The notes under the pieces: model-generated
Databases searched by the model: none
Told to the model about the DNA's origin: nothing
Seen by the model: only the letters and a program-made list of their open reading frames with translations
Part shown: one piece after another, positions 2,301-19,046 of the stretch
Position numbering within the stretch: the stretch's first letter is position 1
How the letters are laid out: each line of letters starts with the position of its first letter
DNA from: Tricharina praecox
Taxonomy: Eukaryota
Length of the DNA: 21,360 bases
Reading direction: 5' to 3'
NCBI RefSeq assembly: GCF_024521635.1
Contig: NW_026250412.1
Location: 1,178,001 to 1,199,360, forward strand
Made by a program: the position numbers and the translations under genes

Positions 2301-3251
2301 ATGTCCACCGACTCCACCACCACCGGCACCGAACCGCGCGATGGCACTCCGCCAGCCGCGCCCCAGCCCGATGCGTCGCAGCTAAGCTCTTATCCGGCGG
2401 GCTACACATGCCCCCCGTTGACGACGGAGGTGATGCTCCAGCACGGCGTGGTCGCGCAGCTCCTGTCGGCGCACATCCAGCGGCTCGTTCGTCTTGCCCC
2501 ACCGCCCCCTCCAAGTCCGCACTAACACCCCCCACAGCGCGAGAAAGCCTTCGCCGCGTTCCCATACCCGGGCATCGCGCTATACCAGTTCATCGAGTTC
2601 TCAGGCGGACTACCCAGCTACCCTCGGCTCGACTCGCTGCTATCACTTCTGCGCGCCGGCGGAATCCTCCTCGACGTCGGCTGCGGCATGGGTTCAGAGC
2701 TGCGGTACCTACGCTCGCACTCGGGCATTCCCGGCGAGCAGCTATTCGGCGCCGACATCAATCCCGCGTTCATCGAGCTGGGCCACGAGCTGTTTATGGA
2801 CTCGCCCGAGAGCACGGGGATCCGGCAGGGCGCCGCGGATATTTTCGATACGAGGCCGGAGTCGTCGTGGATTGTGCGGGAGCTGAAGGGGAAGTGTGCT
2901 GCCGTCCACGCTGCGAGCTTTTTACATTTGTTCGATTGGGCTAGGCAAGTGGAGGCCGCGCTGAGGATGGTTGGGTTCTTGGAGCGGAAGAAGGGGAATT
3001 TCGTGGTGGGAAGGCTGGCGGGAAGTCGTGCGGCAGGACAGTACCGCCATGCGCTGGGGGATGTGTGGCGCCACACACCGGAGAGCTTTGCGGAAATGTG
3101 GAGGGAGGTGGGGACTCGCTCGGGATTGGCGTTCGACGTCGAATGCACCGAGCCAGAGATACTGGTGTTTGAAGCTCCCGAAGGCGAAAAGTGGTCTCTG
3201 CCCGCGGAAGAGCAGGCGACGCAGTTCAGGTTTTGTGTTACTGTCGTTTGA
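2301..3251 (+). CDS. Class I SAM-dependent methyltransferase (fungal AusD/Trt5-like family), 2 exons: 2301-2486, 2538-3251
   Basis: A 51-nt phase-0 intron at 2487-2537 (GTTCGT...CACTAAC...CAG) removes an in-frame TAA. The spliced product reads ...HIQRL/REKAFAAFPYPGIALYQF...LLDVGCGMGSELRYL...LFGADINPAFIELGHELF...VHAASFLHLFDWARQ, with SAM-binding motif I (LDVGCGMG) and motifs typical of this family. An alternative in-frame ATG lies at 2271. Confidence 0.85.
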
Positions 3252-5062
3252 GTACCTACATACTGGCTCGGTGGCGGATGCGCGCGAGTGCGGAATCATC
3301 ATGTCATGATTGATCGTTTTACATGACAGTAACCGTCATGTCAAATTCTTTCGGTTCAAAAAACCCGCAGTGTGAACAACTAAAAGCCGGGCCTGACCTC
3401 CATATGTCTATCCACATCCGATAGCACTTGAAAGTCGAGAGGCCATCTCGCGTGGCCGACCCGGCCGGATGCGTGGATACTCGGATGTCGGATGTCTGGG
3501 TTCAACTAGAGTTGCGTCCGCTTGATTGATGGTAGAAAGAATGCGATGCCGGAACAACCAAGTAGTTTTGGACCAATCCGGGAACCGATTTTGCACTGGA
3601 GATGCCGACATAGGTACGTAGTACTTGCCCCAGATCTTGATGTGATCCCATCGACTGGCGGGAAGCGTTAGCGGCGCCTATCACTGTTTAGTGGGAAGGT
3701 GATGCGTGAGCCAACTTAGCCTTCCTTGATTCATCTCAAGTGACTGGATCTCTCTCGTTCCTTTGCGCTCGATTCGCAGTTTTTGAAGATGATATTTCCG
3801 TCGTACATCAAATAGCGCGATTCGGCGGTCGTCGCAAGAAAGTCAACATCCGGGGGTTTGGCACAGCTGGGTTTCCTCCCACGCCCGACACCGGCGTAGA
3901 AATTCCCGAGGGCCACGTAGAAAGCGCCGGTATGCTCTCCGTCCATGTTCCGGGCAGTCCGCGCTTGCCCAAGGTCCTACGGTGTATGGTCCCGCAGCAT
4001 TACTCGTAGAAGCCTGTCACATGATTTTTCATTCACTTGCTTTCAACAGACGCGATGACTTCACATGACGCTATTGCCCAACTTTTTTGAAGATAGACGC
4101 CTGAAAATGACGGTTGATCGACGGTCCGTGGAAGAGTAACGGGCGGACGCAGCGCCGCGGTGCCACGGGTTGCGGGTGCGGGTCGGGATGCGCAGAACTT
4201 GCTATGATGTAACATCACGTGATCCGAGACCCACCCGCCATCCCGATACCCGTCACCCGCCGTCCGTCTTGTTCTCCACCATACCACGACCGTACCAAGA
4301 CAACGCGGACCGGACTGGACTGCGTCAGTCCATCCCATCCAGACCGACGATGCTACATACCAAACACGGATCAAATGTTTCGCTAACCAAGCCCACAGTG
4401 CCAGCTTCTACTCTTGACTGGCGCAGTTCAGCGACTGAGAATACCAGCCCCTCAGTTATCGGCTCGTTGAGGTTTGAAGACACACTCACGGACGAGGGAC
4501 ACGGCATCTTTGGCAGTCAGGCGACCTCGTACGCGCGATCTATGTGCGGTCAGCAATCGCACTGGTTCGCTTCCAGATTAGCTAGCGCGTACCCCGCAAT
4601 CGCACAGCCCGACTCCCGGCCTGCTCTAGCGGATCTGTACTCCGCGCGGACCGCGACATCGCTGGGGGGTTTCTGTTTGTCTGCGTCGCGAGGAGAAGCT
4701 TCACTAACGAAATGTCTCCAGTTTGGAGGCTTGTAGTGCGCTACTACATACCGGCATCGGCAATGAGCATCGCACATACTATGGCGAATTCCAAGTTCCC
4801 GTGATTGACGTCACGCGACTCCACTTGAAATCTGCAGGAATTACGTACACAGCCCGTAAGCGATCGACGGTTGCAATTCCAAATCGGGAACCACGATGGC
4901 ACACAGCCCATTTGAAGCAGTTCGTGTGACCGCCCAGAGAATCCACATCGGCGGTACCGACGTGGCAATGCTCGGGTACTTGTTCCCCTCACCAGCCCTT
5001 CCCTCTCAGCTATAACCACCTCTGCAACAACCACCATCCTCCACGTTCACCATCACACTCAA

Positions 5063-5104
5063 ACGCAAACACCACGCAAACACCACGCAAACACCACGCA
5101 AACA
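5063..5104. repeat. 11-bp tandem repeat (acgcaaacacc) x~3.8 immediately upstream of ATG 5107
   Basis: Units at 5063, 5074, 5085 and a partial unit at 5096. Confidence 0.9.
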
Positions 5105-5106
5105 TC

Positions 5107-5755
5107 ATGTCTCCCATTAATACCGCCCTCAACACTGTCCGCAACACCGTCCGTGCGCGTGCCGCCGCCTCCGCAAGGACAAGTGTCGCCACCGTTGCGA
5201 CGAAAGCCACCGTTGCCGCCCCCGCTGTCGACGTCTCAGCATACCTTAAGCAAAACTTCCAGGTTCGTTGATGTCAGGCTGTTCACAGTTATCCCTCTGT
5301 CCGTGCGCAATCGATAGACGAGATGGGCTAACAAATTCGTCGCGTTGCAGGAGCCCAATTATGCTGCTTGGGGAGCTGCCGTATCATTACCGAGCACACC
5401 CATCGAGGTTCGTAATCCTGAATCCCCATCTTTGCCGACTCTAGTCCAGGGGTCTCTCTCTCTCTTTCTCGCAACACCACTGACGTCCCGAAGCCTGGCA
5501 GGAATATCTTCGGACAACTTAACCCCCTCGTCGATGTGCAAGAATACATGAGAATCAACGGCATCGTAAGTGTCCCTCCCCACTCTTTCTCCATCGCGCT
5601 GCAGACGCTCGGGCAGACCTGAGTTCTGTTCCCGATGAACCCGCCCCAACCGGGGAAGCGAACTGGCTCTAACCTTGTATCGGCAGGAGCCCAATTATTC
5701 CGCAACCATCTCGGCGAAATCGAGTCCATCGAACCCTGCCAAAACCGTGCGCTAG
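5107..5755 (+). CDS. Small hypothetical protein (~117 aa), 4 exons: 5107-5262, 5351-5407, 5494-5565, 5687-5755; internal duplicated motif
   Basis: Three phase-0 introns: GTTCGT..GCTAAC..CAG, GTTCGT..ACTGAC..AAG and GTAAGT..TCTAAC..CAG. The spliced frame is open to TAG at 5753-5755. The product contains P(A/L)VDV-x2-Y-x3-N-x2-EPNY-x-A twice. Confidence 0.65.
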
Positions 5756-6482
5756 TCCAAGCGCACCCGTGGCCTCTCACCAATCCGCTCGACGGATCAC
5801 AGGTGTGAATGTTGGATTAGGCCTCACAACTATGCGCCGTAACGTATCGCTGGCTGGAACGTGCGACTGCAGTGGCATCTCCGATTAAGAGTGGCTGCGG
5901 AACTGGTTTTCGGGTCGCTTGTCGGACGGAATTGGCGTTTTTATTTTATTTCTGGTGTATCCTGTCAATAACTAGCGATTGCCGTACGAGCACATAGTAC
6001 AATCACTTGCTTTCGAAGCAATTTTCAATTGATCCTTCCGTATGTATGTACGGGGTATTGCCTCCACGGTTACGCTGGGGTTCTGCGATCGGCCGGGGAG
6101 CTTTGGGTACTTTTGCTCTGCCGCTCGTCGTCCGGATCCGTTGTTGTGCTTCCCGTTTCTCGGTGTGCGATGCAAAAAGAAACATTGTATGGGGAGAGTG
6201 GGTAGCCGCCCCTAGGCCCACACCACACGAGTTGCACGAAAGTACACGGCCACGGAAAGACGCTTACTTAAGATACGACAGGTCGCCTTCTAGGAGGCGC
6301 ATGAAACAGAATGATCGTCTGTGCCCGCGCCCTGGCCGAGGCTGCCGAACTCGGCAGCTTGCGCGCAGGCGAGAAAGCCGAGGAAGGCCGCGCCGAAACA
6401 GGAGCAAGCGTTTGAGATCGGGAGCCGCTCATGCCGCGCAATGAAGGGCATATGTACCCGTTTCTTTTGGGTTTAAGAATCG

Positions 6483-9375: not shown

Positions 9376-10200
9376 TTAATCTTTATCCTCATCGTCATCG
9401 TCATCCTCATCCTCATCCCAATCAAACACGAATTCATCCATTCCATCCTCAGACACATACCTCTCACCGCCCTTCACATCCATCCCATCGGCCAAATCTG
9501 CCTCCAGCACATCATCTTCTTCTCCGTCGTCCTCTCCTCGCACTCCCAACGACACCTTCCATCGATTATTCCGCTCGAGTGCAACTTGATCCACATCATG
9601 GCTGGAAAACCACTTGAACCGGAGCTTCCGGTACTGCACAGCATAGATGTGTTCTCCGGGGGCGCCAAACTTCCGCTCATGCACGTTACCCGAGTCCAGA
9701 CCACCTTGCACCTCGCTATTTCCATCACCACCACCATCACCTCTAGCCTGGCCGTCCTTGTCCGCGAACTCCCCGCGCCTCTCGTAAACGAGCGCATCGA
9801 CGACGACATGGTAGCCGACCGTCAGATACATCTTGGCGCCGTCCTTGATCGCATCCAGGATCCACTCGCGCGTCGCTTTCTCCCCACACGCCTTTTTGAA
9901 CCACGCACCGGAGTTGTCGAGCTGGTATGTGCGCGCCTCGGTGGCGTTCGTGGTGATGGCGCCGATCGCGGAAAGCTTCAGGCGCGTCCGGAGACTGGCG
10001 CACCGCGATGAAGTTATCAGCTCTTGGAAGTTCTGCTGGGTTTTGACGACGACGCTGGGGTGTTCAGCGTCGGAGGAGGAGTCGCCGAACGGATAGTGGT
10101 AGTCTTGGTGCGGGTTTGTGGCGTTCCGCACGAGCCGCCCCAGCTGGACTGAGTCGCGAGAGAATAACCCGTGAGGGGGCAGGAGAAGGCTTGATCGCAT
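9376..10200 (-). CDS. Fungal gasdermin-like protein (RCD-1/HET-Q1 family), 274 aa, with acidic C-terminal tail
   Basis: Intronless ORF of typical fungal gasdermin size. Family-like motifs: LGRLVRNATNPHQDY, TYQLDNSGAWFKKA, TREWI, MYLTVGY, PGEHIYAVQYRK. The last 53 aa contain 29 D/E. It lies next to a CHAT protease gene, an arrangement reported for fungal gasdermins. Confidence 0.8.
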   Translation of the reverse strand: MRSSLLLPPHGLFSRDSVQLGRLVRNATNPHQDYHYPFGDSSSDAEHPSVVVKTQQNFQELITSSRCASLRTRLKLSAIGAITTNATEARTYQLDNSGAWFKKACGEKATREWILDAIKDGAKMYLTVGYHVVVDALVYERRGEFADKDGQARGDGGGDGNSEVQGGLDSGNVHERKFGAPGEHIYAVQYRKLRFKWFSSHDVDQVALERNNRWKVSLGVRGEDDGEEDDVLEADLADGMDVKGGERYVSEDGMDEFVFDWDEDEDDDDDEDKD

Positions 10201-11453: not shown

Positions 11454-12908
11454 ATGAATTCTCAAGACGAGCTCGCGGAATACCAGGAATTGTTCCTGCT
11501 CTACGAAAAAACCCATGAAATCGACTATCTCGAGGCAGCTATCGCGGTTGCTGAAACCATGGAGCAGTCGGACGACAACACCGTGGGAACCGACTTACGC
11601 AAAATGGTGAATCTGAAAGTCGAACTATCTCAAGCCGCGGCCGAACCAGATATTATTCCGCGGGGTGTTCCGCAAGACGATACCGAACATGCGGCAGAGA
11701 AAAGTGCGCAGATCTTCTCTCGATATCAACGAACGAAAGGATTGAAGGATCTGAACGATGCCATCGAGTTGGCAAAGATTTCGACCTTGACGCCCCCGAA
11801 GCATCCGGCTCGACCGCTTAGGTTGAGCAGAGTCTGTATGATGTTAGCGGAGAGATTCGAACGGCTTCGCAACGGTGATGACTACAATCACATCCTCCGA
11901 ATAATCACTGCGGTGCAAGATCTCACAGAAGATACTGCGAACGGAAGCGGAGATACTACCATCCAATCCTCGGTCTCGCGTATCATGGCATCCGTAATCT
12001 CCAGGATCGACGGCTGGATATTCAATGGCATCATTCGTTCTCTAGACGATCAGGTTGATGCCAGTCGCGTACTCATCGACCCACGAGCGGATAACCAGCA
12101 AGTAGGCGGCATGCAGCACTGGATCACCAAACGCCCAAACATGCCATATGTGCGCGGCGAGACCGACACAAGTGGCGCGAAAGGATCGAACGCGGGCATG
12201 ATGTATCATATCTTATTCCCGAGGGAACCGGAAGACATCGATGAAGCGGCAACCCACGAGAGTGAAATGCTGGCGGCGACTCCCCAGGAGGATCCCCGTC
12301 GAATGCACTGGTATTGTGTTCTGGGGCAGCAATTTTTGCGACGTTATGTCGAGCGCGAAGTGCCGGAGGACCTAGAGCTAGCCATCCGGTTCGGTGAACA
12401 AGCGGTTGCGGCAATTCCTCCAGGAAACATTGGACGGGTGCAAACATTGCTTTGCTGGGCAAATATATGCAGTGTTGTGCACATGGCTACGGGAGACTTG
12501 AGCCAACTCGATATTGTCATCCAGGTGGTTGAAGAGACGATATCTGCATCATCGGTGCCAGGCGCCCCCGCCAAATGGTTCTCCCTAACCTTGTTGGCAA
12601 GCGTTTACAGACGGAGACATGCGACGGCAAACGATGTGGATGATCTAGACGACGCAATCGAGCTTCTCGAAGAGGCAATGACTCTAACCAAAGATACCAA
12701 TCCCGTCGAATTGGCCGCGGAACGCGAAAGTCTGCTATCAGTCATATACCTCAGTGCTATCAATTCTACCTCCGACCTCGATCGGGCCATAAAACTCCAT
12801 GAAGATGCACTAGATATCGCCAAAGCAGCGGTACCCTCCGGACGAAACCTACGAGCTGAGAGACTCCGGCTTACGGCTTGTGGACTTGCTGTTCAGGAGG
12901 TTCCATAA
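11454..12908 (+). CDS. N-terminal part of TPR-like repeat/CHAT protease (helical repeats); frameshifted relative to the catalytic part
   Basis: Degenerate repeats typical of fungal CHAT proteins: KDLNDAIELAK, EDLELAIRFGEQAV, DDLDDAIELLEEAM, SDLDRAIKLHEDAL. The repeat series continues in another frame after ~12870. Confidence 0.75.
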   Translation: MNSQDELAEYQELFLLYEKTHEIDYLEAAIAVAETMEQSDDNTVGTDLRKMVNLKVELSQAAAEPDIIPRGVPQDDTEHAAEKSAQIFSRYQRTKGLKDLNDAIELAKISTLTPPKHPARPLRLSRVCMMLAERFERLRNGDDYNHILRIITAVQDLTEDTANGSGDTTIQSSVSRIMASVISRIDGWIFNGIIRSLDDQVDASRVLIDPRADNQQVGGMQHWITKRPNMPYVRGETDTSGAKGSNAGMMYHILFPREPEDIDEAATHESEMLAATPQEDPRRMHWYCVLGQQFLRRYVEREVPEDLELAIRFGEQAVAAIPPGNIGRVQTLLCWANICSVVHMATGDLSQLDIVIQVVEETISASSVPGAPAKWFSLTLLASVYRRRHATANDVDDLDDAIELLEEAMTLTKDTNPVELAAERESLLSVIYLSAINSTSDLDRAIKLHEDALDIAKAAVPSGRNLRAERLRLTACGLAVQEVP

Positions 12909-15087
12909 AACACACAACAAGGATGACCTTGCCCGTGGAATCAAATACGGCGAGAACATATTGAGAGCAGCTCGTTATTTGAAGATGGATTCGGAACTGA
13001 CAGGACGGAGATTCCTCCACCCCGAACTGATGCGAGAGGTTGCCCGGTTTGTGGGAGTCATGTTGGTTGACCGATACATACACTTGGATGGTGATCCAAC
13101 CGACCTCGATAAGGCAGAAAAAGTACTCCACAAGGCGATAGAGGGCGCAACCGGTACCCCTGCTTCCCACCTCCAATGGCGAATCAGCCAGTTGCACTTG
13201 GCAAAGTTCCGACAAACATCCAACCCTCAGGAACTCGAAAAAGCGCACAGGTGGATTCGAAAAGCGCTGGAAACGTTGCCTTCGAGCGATGACGAGTACA
13301 GGTATGTATTCGCGGAAGAGCTTGCAATGATAGTCGATGCACAAATGCAATACGAAAATACTCATACTGGGAATTACCGCGCGGTCATATCGAAATGGCA
13401 ACAACTGTTGATGTTATATTTGCAGCAGTGGGAATCAGAGAATTTGATGCCAAACCCCCGGATCCTTGGAGCTCGAAATGCGGCGAATATTTACCTCCAG
13501 ATTGGTATGGTGGAGGAAGCATACTCACTGCTAGAGAAGGCCGTCGCGGAGCTGCCACGACTGTGCCAACGTTCGGGACGACGGGATGACCAGCAGTATA
13601 TGCTGTCCTGTGCCGAAGTATACGAACTAGCAGCAATCGGAGCATCGGTCGCAATTCGAGCCGGGAGAGGCGCCTATCAAGCACTCAAAATGCTCGAGTT
13701 TGGTCGGGTGCTCATATCCGGGTTTTCCATCGATTGCAGGAGCGATCTGTCAGATCTCAGAGCATCCCACCCAGAGTACGCCGATATAGTCGAAAAGCTG
13801 AGAACTGAAATGGATTACCCACACGTTGAGGAGCGACGGCAACGCGGGCGGAAGCTCGCCACTGCTGAATTCGAAAAGATATTGCATCGTATACGACAGT
13901 TGCCCGGACACGAAGAATTCTTGCTTCCACCGCCGCCGGAATCCCTGATGAAAATTGCTGCGGATGGGACTATTGTTATGATCAATTGCAACGCGCATGG
14001 GAGCGACGCCATTACTGTCACATCCTCTTCGATACAGTCACTACCACTTCCTAGGCTCCTATACAAGGATGTCGAACAGCACATGGCTGGTATGAGCGCG
14101 AGTCTAAAAGGCACAGCACGAAACTACAACTCGAGGAACAAATCGATGGGTAAGCATCTTCTTTGGTTGTGGGAAGCGGTGGTGGCGCCAGTACTCGACC
14201 ATTTACAACTCGATGAATCCAACCCGACACGCATCTGGTGGATCGGGGTTGGAAAGCTAAGCATGGCCCCTTTCCACGCCGCTGGAGACCATTCCCCTGG
14301 CTCAACCAACAACACCCTCGGTCGAGCAATATCATCATATGTTCCGTCCATCAAAGCCCTTTCATACACACGCCAAAAGCAGCTCAACTTATTTCCCGAG
14401 CCCGACTGGCACCCCTCTTTTCCGGACCACGGCGAAGGACAGCCCGTGGCTACCGAAAAACCTCGACTCCTGATGGTCACTATGCCGACCACAGCGGGAA
14501 GTAGCCCACTTGCCGGGGCAAAACAAGAAGCTAAAGACATTGCCGGAGCATTATCCTCGGGTTCAGTTTCCGTAACGGAACTTGAGCGGCCATCCGCCGC
14601 ACAGGTTCTCGAGCAACTGCGAACACACCACATCCTACACTTTGCCTGTCACGGTATTTCGGACCTGGCCAACCCATCGGACAGTCGATTACTCCTGCAG
14701 AGTCCCGATCCGACCAGCAGCGAGCCAGACACGCTTTCCGTCCGTGCGGTGTCGAGCGCGAACACGGATGTGGCACAGATCGCATATCTATCGGCTTGTT
14801 CGACGGCGGAAAATCGTTCCGTACTCCTGGCCGACGAAGCTATTCATATCGCCAATGCCTTTCAACTCGCTGGCTTCAGCCACGTTCTAGCGACGCTCTG
14901 GGAATCCGATGATCGGCTTTGCCGACGGGTTGCGACGGAGTTTTATAAGAATCTGTTCAATGGATCGGCCGGCGTTGAGGGGCATCTTAAGGTAGCTAGG
15001 GCTTATCATCTGGCGGTGAAGACGGTTCGAGACAAGAAGCCGAAGGATTTTTTGGGATGGGCGCCGTTTATCCACACCGGTGCTTAG
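12880..15087 (+). CDS. C-terminal part: TPR-like repeats + CHAT (caspase HetF associated with TPRs) cysteine protease domain
   Basis: Motifs WLWEAVVAPVLDHL, RIWWIGVGKLSMAPFHAAG, ISSYVPSIKAL, ILHFACHG (catalytic His, codon 14650), AYLSACSTA (catalytic Cys, codon 14797), AFQLAGFSHVLATLW and WAPFIHTGA-stop. Confidence 0.92.
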   Translation: MDLLFRRFHKTHNKDDLARGIKYGENILRAARYLKMDSELTGRRFLHPELMREVARFVGVMLVDRYIHLDGDPTDLDKAEKVLHKAIEGATGTPASHLQWRISQLHLAKFRQTSNPQELEKAHRWIRKALETLPSSDDEYRYVFAEELAMIVDAQMQYENTHTGNYRAVISKWQQLLMLYLQQWESENLMPNPRILGARNAANIYLQIGMVEEAYSLLEKAVAELPRLCQRSGRRDDQQYMLSCAEVYELAAIGASVAIRAGRGAYQALKMLEFGRVLISGFSIDCRSDLSDLRASHPEYADIVEKLRTEMDYPHVEERRQRGRKLATAEFEKILHRIRQLPGHEEFLLPPPPESLMKIAADGTIVMINCNAHGSDAITVTSSSIQSLPLPRLLYKDVEQHMAGMSASLKGTARNYNSRNKSMGKHLLWLWEAVVAPVLDHLQLDESNPTRIWWIGVGKLSMAPFHAAGDHSPGSTNNTLGRAISSYVPSIKALSYTRQKQLNLFPEPDWHPSFPDHGEGQPVATEKPRLLMVTMPTTAGSSPLAGAKQEAKDIAGALSSGSVSVTELERPSAAQVLEQLRTHHILHFACHGISDLANPSDSRLLLQSPDPTSSEPDTLSVRAVSSANTDVAQIAYLSACSTAENRSVLLADEAIHIANAFQLAGFSHVLATLWESDDRLCRRVATEFYKNLFNGSAGVEGHLKVARAYHLAVKTVRDKKPKDFLGWAPFIHTGA

Positions 15088-15840: not shown

Positions 15841-17184
15841 ATGGATCCGCTATCCATCACCGTCTCCATCATCGCGCTAATCGGAGCCGCACGCAAAATT
15901 GCAGAGTCAGTGCAGGCCATCAGCGAGGCGCCGCGGCTGATCTGCACCGTGGTCAGCGAGACAAAAGTGCTGGCTTCGATATTCTCTCAACTCGACGTGA
16001 AATTTTTCCAGTCGACAGTGATACCGGACGATGCGATGCAGCAGTTTCAGCATCTACTACGGCGGATGCAGGCTCTGTTTGCGGAACTCGAGAAGGAGTT
16101 GGCCGGCGTTGTATGCATACCGGGAAGGCTGGGGCTGTTGGACCGTGTGAAGTGGGCGGCGCGAGAAGTGGATGTGAATCTCATACTGGCGGACTTGCTG
16201 CAACAGAAAGCATCGTTAAACATCATGATTGGCATCTGGACCGGGTAGTTAATCCACTCATCTACTTTTCTGTTTGATCCGAACATATAAGGCCCAACTG
16301 TACTGACGGGAATGGAAACTCACAGCCAGCAAAACAATCCCCAGAATAGATCAATTGCTGCTATTCTTCCGCACATTGTACCATCCCCGAACCCAGTCGA
16401 GCCGAGCCTCCCTTCCCAAGAACTTGCCAGAAAACGCCCGGTCCCACGGCTCAGCATTAACCTCAGCCGGCGACGTCCCGCGAATCGTTCTTCCACAGCT
16501 CTTCTTCAACGGAGCCTCCTCCCGCTTGCCGCCGTCCGTCTCGCACGTCTGGTACGTAACCAGACAGACCCGTGCGAAGACTTTATCGACGCGCCCGTCC
16601 CACCACAAGCGTCAGACATCGTCATCGACCGAGTCACGAATGTCGTCGAAACCCAACTCTCGTCGAAATCTTCAAGCCTCCGCGTGCTCATTGCCGGCCG
16701 TGTCTCCGTCAACGCAGAGTTCCGCGAGGCTAATCTGGCGAAGATGAAAGCCGAGGATTCGCTTTGCTATCAACTCCCGAACTCGGCCGCCTGGTTCAGA
16801 AAGGCAAAAGCGGATACGGAAACCTGCCGCTGGATGGAGGAAGCCCGCAGCGACATTTATTTCGTGGTCGGGTTCCGCACCCTCGTTCGTACCCACATAC
16901 TGGAGGCGAGAACCCGCGGAAGCTGTACTAGGCAAGGAGAGGATATCTGTGACAGCACTAGTACAATACAGGCACCGAGTGGGCAGGACTCGGAGGTCGT
17001 TGGGGGTGGCGAGATGGAGAATTCACACATTGATGCGCACGAGAGAAGCATACATGCTGCTGATGAGACTATATGTGCAATCCAATATAGGAAGGTAAAG
17101 TTGGGATGGCATTCCCGGAATGTGAGAAGCGCGACTTTGGAATCTGGCAGTCGGTGGGAACCAGTGTGGGGTCATCTAAGATGA
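15841..17184 (+). CDS. HeLo-like/SesA-type (fungal STAND N-terminal) helical domain fused to a gasdermin-like domain, 420 aa; exons 15841-16244 and 16326-17184
   Basis: Exon 1 begins MDPLSITVSIIALIGAARKI and contains LLDRVKWAA, typical of fungal NLR N-terminal helical domains. A phase-2 intron at 16245-16325 (GTAGTT..TACTGAC..CAG) restores the frame (GG/C). Exon 2 carries LARLVRNQTDPCEDF, YQLPNSAAWFRKA, IYFVVGF, ETICAIQYRK and LESGSRW, colinear with the 9376-10200 gasdermin. Confidence 0.75.
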
Positions 17185-17678: not shown

Positions 17679-19046
17679 CTATTTATACGTATAACAAAGC
17701 AATCCAGCCTCAAACTCATCCGGAGTTGTCCCTCGCGTATCCATGACCCGCGCAGTCTCCACCGTCAACCGATTACCACCCAACGGTCCCATGGTAAGCT
17801 CAAAGTCGAGCGTGACATTGCCCGGCGGAGGGTTGGGATACAGGTCCGCAAACAAGGGGACCCTGGGCGCAATCGGGTTTCCAACGTCGAAACGCCGTGC
17901 CGACGGGTTCGCTTGCTGCCATTTCCACCAGATACGGTCGATGTTCGCGTGGAACACGTAGAAAAGAGGGTCTCCGGGCGAGATGAAGACGTCGGCCATC
18001 TGGGGTTAGGGTTAGCGGCGGTCGGTATATATTCCTAGGGGGGGGACAACATACGTCTCCTTCGATGCAGAGATGACCAGCATTGTGGATTCCGAAATCC
18101 GTGTTCCAGTCGAGATTACCCTCAAGGGCGACGGCGAACCGCTCGTAGTTGGGGTTTTTAAGTACGTCGACTTCGCGACTGGGCTTCAACCACTCCCGTG
18201 CGGGCTCGCGGACGATATTGCGCTTGAGGCAGCGCTCGTGGTACGAGCTGTCGTTCGTGTGGCCGAGATGGATTACCTCATCCTTGAAGGCACCGCTATG
18301 GATACAACCTCCGCCGGTGTAGTCGAAGGTGGGGAAGGTCGGCAGTCTGGACAGCGGCGCGTCTGGGTCGTATTTACCGTTGCCTCCGAAGGAGACTTCG
18401 CCGTTCAGTAGAGGCGAGGCGAGGATGTCGCGGTAGTCTTTCGATTGGTCCCAATAACTGCATATACCAGTTAGGACGCGAAGCAGCAGTAGAGGGTGTT
18501 GGGGCACCTACGGAACTCCGCCAGCGTAACCGCATTCCTCTCTCAGGACGCGCTCATACTCGTAGAGGAAGAGCCTATGCCACGGAAGGAAGTGTCCGAC
18601 CCAGTGGACCATTGGCATCATAGATTGGTGTATCCAGATGAAATCTACAAGTACGGAAGTTAGCTCACCATTGTCATCCCCCAAAAGACACTCTGACTCG
18701 AAGATCGACCTTCCCATCGCGTTGTGATCCCTTCGGCATAACTACCCAGCTTCGGGGGTTTCGCCATCATGCACTTGACCGCCCGGAGGTAATCCTTTCG
18801 CTGATGCATGCTCAGATGCCGCCTGTGGTGCGGTTCACGTCAGCTCTGCAGTTGTGGGAATCGGGAAAGCAGTACACACCACTCGCGGCGAACAATCGGA
18901 TCGCTGCACTGTTCTTTGCCGGTGTGCTTTCCTTTGCTGTGCTGTGCTTCACTGGACTTTCGAGAGTCCGACTGTGCCGACGGTAATGCCGACGAAAGGG
19001 CAATAACACCGGTAAGGAGCGTGACGATGGTGGTTCTGAAGTGCAT
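17679..19046 (-). CDS. Secreted tyrosinase / di-copper centre protein, ~378 aa, 5 exons: 19046-18880, 18822-18710, 18644-18512, 18457-18055, 17999-17679
   Basis: Signal peptide MHFRTTIVTLLTGVIALSSA. Motifs IVRREWR, YLRAVKCM, CuA (DFIWIH..MVH..GHFLPWHR), PYWD and CuB (GIHNAGH..SPGDPLFYVFHANIDRIWWKWQ). Four GT-AG introns with CTAAC/CTGAC branch sites; the exon sum of 1137 nt is in frame. Confidence 0.9.

Follow-up and report, generated by a model that had tools for sequence, protein, structure and literature searches.

In Podospora anserina, the HET-Q1/HET-Q2 and Q1-6/Q2L-6 systems each have a fungal gasdermin gene clustered with the gene of a multidomain protease. In this paper we describe a comparable locus of Tricharina praecox (Pezizales), found in a window of 21,360 nucleotides (nt), which is the whole stretch of DNA analysed (contig NW_026250412.1, positions 1,178,001 to 1,199,360 of the forward strand; all further positions are those of the window). 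The element under study, at 15841..17184 on the plus strand, is almost certainly one spliced gene that encodes a HeLo-like domain, a linker and a gasdermin without a C-terminal tail, and we refer to its product as the fusion protein. As with Q2L-6, the neighbouring gene is of the TPR-CHAT type, and a second gasdermin of the window, gasdermin A, is built in the canonical way and ends in an acidic tail. Unlike HET-Q1 and Q1-6, the fusion protein has no C-terminal tail and carries an N-terminal extension of about 190 amino acids, so any control by cleavage would need to act at the opposite end of the protein.

The best profile and fold match of the gasdermin part is RCD-1 of Neurospora crassa (RCD-1-1/RCD-1-2, PDB 8jyz, 8jyy, 8jyx), which is likewise a fungal gasdermin without a long inhibitory domain. 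RCD-1 differs in having no N-terminal module, and its identity to the fusion protein is 11-12% in structural alignments. It is not known to be clustered with a protease and is activated by the pairing of two alleles. The Trichoplax gasdermin TrichoGSDM (PDB 8jyw/8jyv), our third Foldseek match, also consists of a pore-forming domain only, but has neither an N-terminal domain nor a protease neighbour; it is held inactive as a disulfide-linked dimer. To our knowledge, all gasdermins with an understood control are restrained in one of three ways: a domain or tail at the C-terminus holds them, they are locked in a disulfide dimer, or they require a second allele. The front half of the fusion protein recalls a different group of proteins, namely HELLP, the HeLo domain of HET-S and the four-helix bundle of MLKL, which begin with a helical domain whose first helix is hydrophobic and continue into a regulatory region. 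The C-terminal partner in these proteins is an amyloid motif, a pseudokinase or the core of an NLR (NOD-like receptor), whereas in the fusion protein it is a second, predicted pore-forming domain.

The gene appears in the window as two open reading frames (ORFs) of the same frame on the plus strand, ORF 1 (15841-16248, 135 amino acids) and ORF 2 (16312-17184, 290 amino acids). Exon 1 (15841..16244, plus strand) holds the start codon and the HeLo-like N-terminal domain, with residues 1-134 and two bases of codon 135. It is followed by an in-frame intron of 81 nt in phase 2 (16245..16325, plus strand) and by exon 2 (16326..17184, plus strand), which encodes the linker, the gasdermin domain and the stop codon. 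The intron has the donor GTAGTT, the acceptor CAG and a CTGAC at 16303, and contains two stop codons, a TAG at 16246 and a TAA farther along. There are 77 GT..AG pairs of 40-400 nt that leave 15841-17184 as one open frame; the intron is not singled out by sequence alone, and it is the contig evidence that decides. Two presumed-RNA runs, X1 and X2, from the studies P1 and P2, contain one contig each (1438 and 1526 nt), covering 15780/15799 to 17298/17300 with the end of exon 1 at 16243/16244. Exactly the 81 nt from 16245 to 16325 are absent from both contigs, with GT..AG ends and 0 other differences. That these runs are RNA is a guess; we take the contigs as cDNA because each is an intron-less copy, bounded by the gene ends, of genomic DNA in which the intron is present.

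The spliced translation has 420 amino acids (P0162) and is identical to NCBI XP_051340220.1/KAI5853626.1, deposited as a hypothetical protein of T. praecox; RNA data of the same sort probably underlie the deposited model. These results bear out what the initial annotation had read from the letters, namely a cryptic 81-nt intron and an in-frame product of 420 amino acids, and the spliced transcript it called for across the 16244-16326 junction is present in the presumed-RNA contigs of two studies. Soil metatranscriptome runs X3 and X4, both from one study, add exon 2 pieces of 224 nt and 163 nt within 16469-16933, with no difference in the 224 nt and 1 difference in the 163 nt, which are too short for an inference on habitat or splicing. 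It might be argued that the locus holds two separate genes, one for a HeLo-like protein of 135 amino acids and one for a gasdermin of 290 amino acids that starts from the ATG at 16312. Each ORF is indeed open on its own, gene callers list the two apart on related contigs, and the X1 and X2 contigs are compatible with a minor intron-retaining form. But the ATG at 16312 lies within the intron that is removed in both contigs, and the deposited model is the fused one, and we regard two genes as extremely improbable.

The gasdermin pore-forming domain occupies 16486..17181 (plus strand, residues 189-420) and ends at an Arg that is conserved in the family. We folded the full-length protein with AlphaFold2 (AF2) using an alignment of 103 rows, which gave a mean predicted local distance difference test score (pLDDT) of 74.7 and a predicted template modelling score (pTM) of 0.54. 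In the combined alignment used (A3), the first three residues are misplaced at 76-78 in about 94 gasdermin rows and the C-terminal part of the relative P0006 overlies the gasdermin region, where the model may be slightly degraded. Residues from about 194 to 420 are beta-rich in the model, with a core pLDDT above 90, and are predicted to have the gasdermin fold. The best Foldseek match is the RCD-1 pore 8jyz_A (E 3.1e-9, prob 1.00, template modelling (TM) score on the target 0.55), and all 8 matches at E <= 0.001 are gasdermins, of which seven are pores and one is an oligomer of a bacterial gasdermin. The independent aligner VIA also finds 8jyz_A, at Z 10.0 with a root mean square deviation (rmsd) of 4.7 over 192 aligned positions of residues 197-418, and gives Z 8-9 for bacterial, GSDME, GSDMA3 and GSDMB structures. 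The hairpins of the model are extended and pore-like (strands 234-257, 261-284 and 313-337, within 234-337), which is a property of the model and not evidence of activity.

The Pfam scan found no matching model for the gasdermin part, and a single-sequence search of the PDB with exon 2 found no match, while a profile of 97 rows matches only RCD-1-1 (E 1.3e-3) and RCD-1-2 (E 1.2e-2) there. Word-index protein searches returned few relatives (2, 1 and 4 matches); an exhaustive search returned 334 gasdermin relatives at E <= 1e-3. Most of these are 250-300 amino acids long and align with their own residues 2-10 to residues 55-65 of the exon 2 query, which places the usual start of fungal gasdermins at the RSS of the fusion protein. 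The initial annotation had placed the gasdermin start at this RSS (16486), as a mirror of the MRSS that begins gasdermin A. The alignment agrees, as gasdermin A aligns from its residue 2 onward and is 33% identical to exon 2 (E 2e-27), with about 60 residues beyond the aligned part.

What appears to be new is that the fusion protein ends, in the alignment, exactly at the conserved Arg where the tails of its relatives begin. Its last residue falls in an alignment column where 89 of the 97 rows have Arg. A tail of at least 20 amino acids after this Arg is present in 90 of the 97 rows (median 42, typically acidic), and the fusion protein has 0. Only 6 of the 97 rows have three or fewer residues after the column. 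Four of them, the fusion protein, P0005, P0114 and P0024, end at or within 2 residues of it and have N-terminal heads of 17-87 amino acids; the rows P0045 and P0053 end soon after a Trp and look cut short. Heads of at least 30 amino acids are found in only 6 of the 90 tailed rows, and N-terminal heads thus accompany tail loss among the aligned relatives. The lack of a C-terminal tail in the gasdermin part favours the idea, raised on reading the sequence, of a topology that is the inverse of canonical gasdermins.

A FastTree tree of 101 rows places the tail-less fusion protein, P0005, L001 and P0016, together with the fragments P0007 and P0008, in one clade with 100% local support. The four tail-less members end in WGH[LM]R or WGHMRA, and the WGH[LM]R end is kept in P0005, P0016 and L001 at 41-58% identity. 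As P0024 and P0114 are placed outside the clade of the fusion protein, a minimum of 3 changes on the tree is required to account for the tail-less state, and tail loss combined with an extended N-terminus may have more than one origin. P0114 (350 amino acids) and P0024 (305 amino acids), both tail-less, match no Pfam model, and their heads comprise 87 and 17 aligned residues, respectively.

The N-terminal domain (N-domain) spans residues 1 to about 140, with helices at 3-58, 63-87 and 99-138 and pLDDT values of 67-87 in the AF2 model. It opens with a hydrophobic helix, MDPLSITVSIIALIGAA. The fusion protein matches PF17111 (Helo_like_N, now PigL_N) at 15.4 bits (E 0.012, residues 1-88 only) and SesA (PF17107) at 12.8 bits, both under the Pfam gathering cut-offs of 27.2 bits for PF17111 and 26.3 bits for SesA. 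Its close relatives score higher. P0158, with 62% identity by BLASTP and 65% in the alignment A1, reaches 39.8 bits for PF17111, and P0160 reaches 28.1 bits. These two pass the cut-off at 64-65% identity to the N-domain, and P0159 and P0156 score 22.9 and 21.8 bits. The full-length relatives that provide this link have 61-69% identity. In the alignment A1 (6 members), 5 of the 6 match PF17111 (best E 4.2e-10) and 4 of the 6 match SesA, for which the best relative scores 18.9 bits; SesA is a weaker second match, from a related family. A feature search of the ESM Atlas gave PF17111 clusters in 24 of 30 matches with a top score of 0.96, and a search there with the whole protein gave feature scores of only 0.77, a lead at most. 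The name HeLo-like or SesA that the initial annotation had given to exon 1 therefore holds in part: relatives as close as P0158 and P0160 pass PF17111, and the scores of the domain itself stay below threshold for both families.

Fold comparison of the N-domain was less specific. VIA matches of residues from about 21 to 139 are generic helical bundles at Z 8-10, which is the background for helical models. The ZAR1 coiled-coil domain also appears (6j5t_G, Z 8.8, rmsd 2.7, 108 aligned), whereas the 50 matches listed for the model of the fusion protein contain neither MLKL nor HET-s. A single-sequence fold of the N-domain had a pLDDT of 51.9, too low for a fold search, and a single-sequence search of the PDB with exon 1 gave only chance-level serpin matches (E > 0.1). 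We conclude that the N-domain is of the PF17111 (Helo_like_N)/SesA kind. As fold comparison gave only generic bundles and the ZAR1 coiled-coil, this membership rests on sequence, and an MLKL-like fold is putative.

This raises the question whether the N-domain is a killing domain at all. PF17111-type domains occur on many proteins, such as the pigment-cluster protein PigL, which is now the namesake of the Pfam family. The N-domain might accordingly be an adaptor, an anchor or a regulatory module, which localises the gasdermin or docks to another HeLo-like or NLR protein. The sub-threshold PF17111 score and the generic structural matches would agree with such a role, as would P0006, a relative of 481 amino acids in which the N-domain is joined to an unrelated C-terminal part. 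A hydrophobic first helix together with PF17111/SesA similarity is, however, the MLKL-like membrane-targeting type in the portions of the literature covered, and we think a non-killing N-domain improbable. The accession PF17111 is the one termed Helo_like_N or HeLo-like in PMC9815663.

Possible traces of the fusion are also found in relatives. A search with exon 1 returned four ORFs of 127-130 amino acids, of which three end at the donor position of the fusion gene and the fourth reads through it, as would be expected of a conserved donor. For the exon 1 relative P0157 (69% identity) as well as for the gasdermin relative P0005 (58%), the recorded source is a Logan contig with a length of 3946 bases, which suggests, and does not prove, that they lie on one contig. 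A scan of metagenome contigs gave 1 confirmed locus, L001, out of 85 pattern matches. There, an N-domain ORF (4992-5441, 46% identity) ends at a canonical GTGAGT donor. After a gap of about 200 nt it is followed by a tail-less gasdermin ORF (5655-6407) that shares its strand and frame. L001 also carries an ORF of a retrotransposon-type integrase (260-1696, Integrase_H2C2, E 1e-10), some 3.3 kb upstream of this fused-type gene. The ESM Atlas has no cluster of at least 50 members at the two-domain length of the fusion protein. A different N-terminal fusion with an NLR-type domain appears to exist in P0144, a gasdermin relative of 593 amino acids whose gasdermin match, at 360-492, is preceded at the N-terminus by a domain of the PNP_UDP_1 phosphorylase superfamily (E 9.3e-8, 32.2 bits); PNP_UDP_1 is among the N-terminal domains of fungal NLRs in the part of PMC9815663 covered.

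Between the two domains lies a Pro/Arg-rich disordered linker (16345..16497, plus strand, residues about 143-193). Its pLDDT is below 50 in residues 143-158 and 163-193, with means of 31-44 for blocks of ten residues over 141-190, and the commonest of the 54 residues from 136 to 189 are P (10), R (8), N (6) and S (6). The layout of helical domain, Pro/Arg-rich linker and gasdermin that was first proposed corresponds to the model segments 3-138, 143-193 and about 194 onward. Directly upstream of the gasdermin start is the basic motif LSINLSRRRP (16450..16479, plus strand). Its counterparts are LSLNLSRRRP in P0005 and LTLNLSRRP in the L001 reading frame, and the remaining linker is not conserved. 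LSINLSRRRP is a candidate recognition or cleavage element. A cleavage motif common to SLGVRG, at the tail junction of gasdermin A, and NLSRRR, in the linker, was also considered; we rejected it because a likeness this short does not exceed chance.

The fusion gene is the third in a cluster of three, after a canonical gasdermin and a TPR-CHAT protease. Gasdermin A, encoded at 9376-10200 on the minus strand, has 274 amino acids. The TPR-CHAT protease gene (11454..15087, plus strand) consists of the ORFs 11454-12908 and 12985-15087, and its CHAT ORF ends at 15087; the start codon of the fusion gene (15841) follows 754 bases later on that strand. That this neighbour is a CHAT protease, as had been presumed, is confirmed by its match to PF12770 (E 4.7e-37, 128.4 bits). 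Weak TPR matches occur in both ORFs, and the second one has HFACHG at residue 552 and SAC at residue 603. The TPR ORF, which ends at 12908, overlaps in another frame with the TPR-CHAT part, which is open from 12814 and has its first ATG at 12985. None of the 41 possible GT..AG joins in this region (12800-12990) is canonical or convincing, and the junction may be an unusual intron, a frameshift, or the border of two genes. Clusters of gasdermin and protease genes, three-gene ones included, are described in the sections of PMC8851545 covered here, as is the processing of a clustered gasdermin by the TPR-CHAT protease in Podospora.

For the mechanism, the initial annotation had offered two readings: two killing domains in one chain, or an N-terminal cap that is freed by a cut in the linker. 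We propose, tentatively, that the fusion protein is controlled at its front end by the N-domain and linker, and that it would be activated through CHAT cleavage in the linker. The inhibitory element would have shifted from the C-terminus to the N-terminus in this lineage, so that the N-domain and linker would keep the tail-less gasdermin from assembling. According to PMC13475620, the N-terminal region of HET-Q1 inserts into the neighbouring protomer of the pore, and in the HET-Q1 model the C-terminal tail touches the N-terminus. A bulky N-terminal extension could block an insertion of this type. The neighbouring CHAT protease, triggered via its TPR part, would then cut the basic linker near the gasdermin start, which would free a gasdermin with a near-native N-terminus to form pores. 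The released HeLo-like domain may add a second membrane attack. Activation by a linker cut fits the locus because of its tail-less end, the disordered basic linker with its conserved motif, and the protease neighbour. It is more doubtful that one CHAT cut frees two membrane attackers, one of the necroptosis type and one of the pyroptosis type, from an N-terminally regulated chain that has lost its tail.

Several observations weigh against front-end control. With a pTM of 0.54, the model leaves it uncertain how the two domains are placed relative to each other. N-terminally V5-tagged HET-Q1 still kills cells according to the literature passages covered, and imaging work used HET-Q1 with green fluorescent protein (GFP) attached at its N-terminus (PMC13475620); as such tags are tolerated, an N-terminal extension need not inhibit. 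In the passages on the V5-tagged form, the truncated HET-Q1(1-239) had slight toxicity only and 1-237 had none, so the absence of a tail alone does not mean an active protein. The sections of the literature searched state no site preference of fungal CHAT proteases. An exon-1-like domain was found by phmmer in 0 of the 149 listed other gasdermin relatives, many of which are ORF calls on short contigs where an upstream exon would be missed. L001 has an in-frame TGA (5652-5654) within its linker motif LNLSRRP, which could be due to a pseudogene, a misassembly or a longer intron. An alternative reading with an intron of 258 nt (5438-5695) gives 384 amino acids and removes the linker altogether. 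No CHAT gene was found in the 8 kb of L001. A complex prediction of the N-domain with the gasdermin (189-420) scored 0.00; it was run without alignments or controls and carries no weight either way.

The stop codon in the linker of L001, beside a retrotransposon integrase ORF, leads to the suspicion that the fused gene is a decaying or decoy copy. The tail would have been lost by a premature stop and the upstream exon gained, and the product would be non-functional or a competing substrate that damps the protease. Fused forms also look rare, given that the ESM Atlas clusters lack the two-domain length. Against decay, the gene is spliced and expressed, the gasdermin core has a pLDDT above 90, and the WGH[LM]R end is kept within one clade at the identities given above. 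A decaying or decoy copy is very unlikely in our view.

The main rival to front-end control is that the whole chain acts as one unit, a dual executioner without any cut in the linker. The HeLo-like domain, with its free hydrophobic helix at the N-terminus, would target or perforate the membrane, and the tail-less gasdermin would oligomerise and form a second pore. Control would come from elsewhere, such as expression, partner proteins, or a pairing with gasdermin A that resembles that of the RCD-1 alleles. The HeLo-like domain is at the extreme N-terminus, as it is in HET-S, HELLP and NLRs according to the literature portions covered. Tail-less fungal gasdermins that act uncut do exist, and one of them, RCD-1, is the best structural match. 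The cluster furthermore holds two gasdermins, and the N-domain is conserved at least as well as the gasdermin (69% in P0157 versus 58% in P0005). However, the adjoining protease is of a type that cuts gasdermins in such clusters (PMC8851545, in the sections covered). The basic linker is long and disordered, has a conserved motif by the gasdermin start and resembles a processing site, and a tail-less gasdermin without control should damage the cell that makes it. We consider an uncut dual executioner rather unlikely, and retain front-end control with a cut in the linker as the working proposal.

Neither a HeLo-like-gasdermin fusion nor an N-extended, tail-less fungal gasdermin is described in the searched portions of open-access papers and preprints, although such proteins may be listed in Dataset S1 of PMC8851545. 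The papers covered in part for precedents of the fusion were PMC8851545, PMC13475620, PMC12881547, PMC9815663 and PMC10197012. If the proposal is true, a natural tail-less gasdermin with an N-terminal module would show that the inhibitory logic of gasdermins can be inverted. The fusion also brings the fungal counterparts of the executioners of necroptosis (HeLo-like, MLKL-like) and of pyroptosis (gasdermin) into one polypeptide. The interplay of both executioners could thus be tested with one construct and the protease encoded next door. We suggest that this protein, deposited only as hypothetical, is of interest to the fungal cell death field.

Two further features were seen in the window. 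Near its start lies a methyltransferase-like ORF (2526-3251, plus strand) with a sub-threshold match to Methyltransf_12 (E 3.9e-6). Just downstream of the fusion gene, on the minus strand, is a tyrosinase gene of at least 2 exons (17679-18507) that matches PF00264 at E 1.1e-11 and 3.2e-9.

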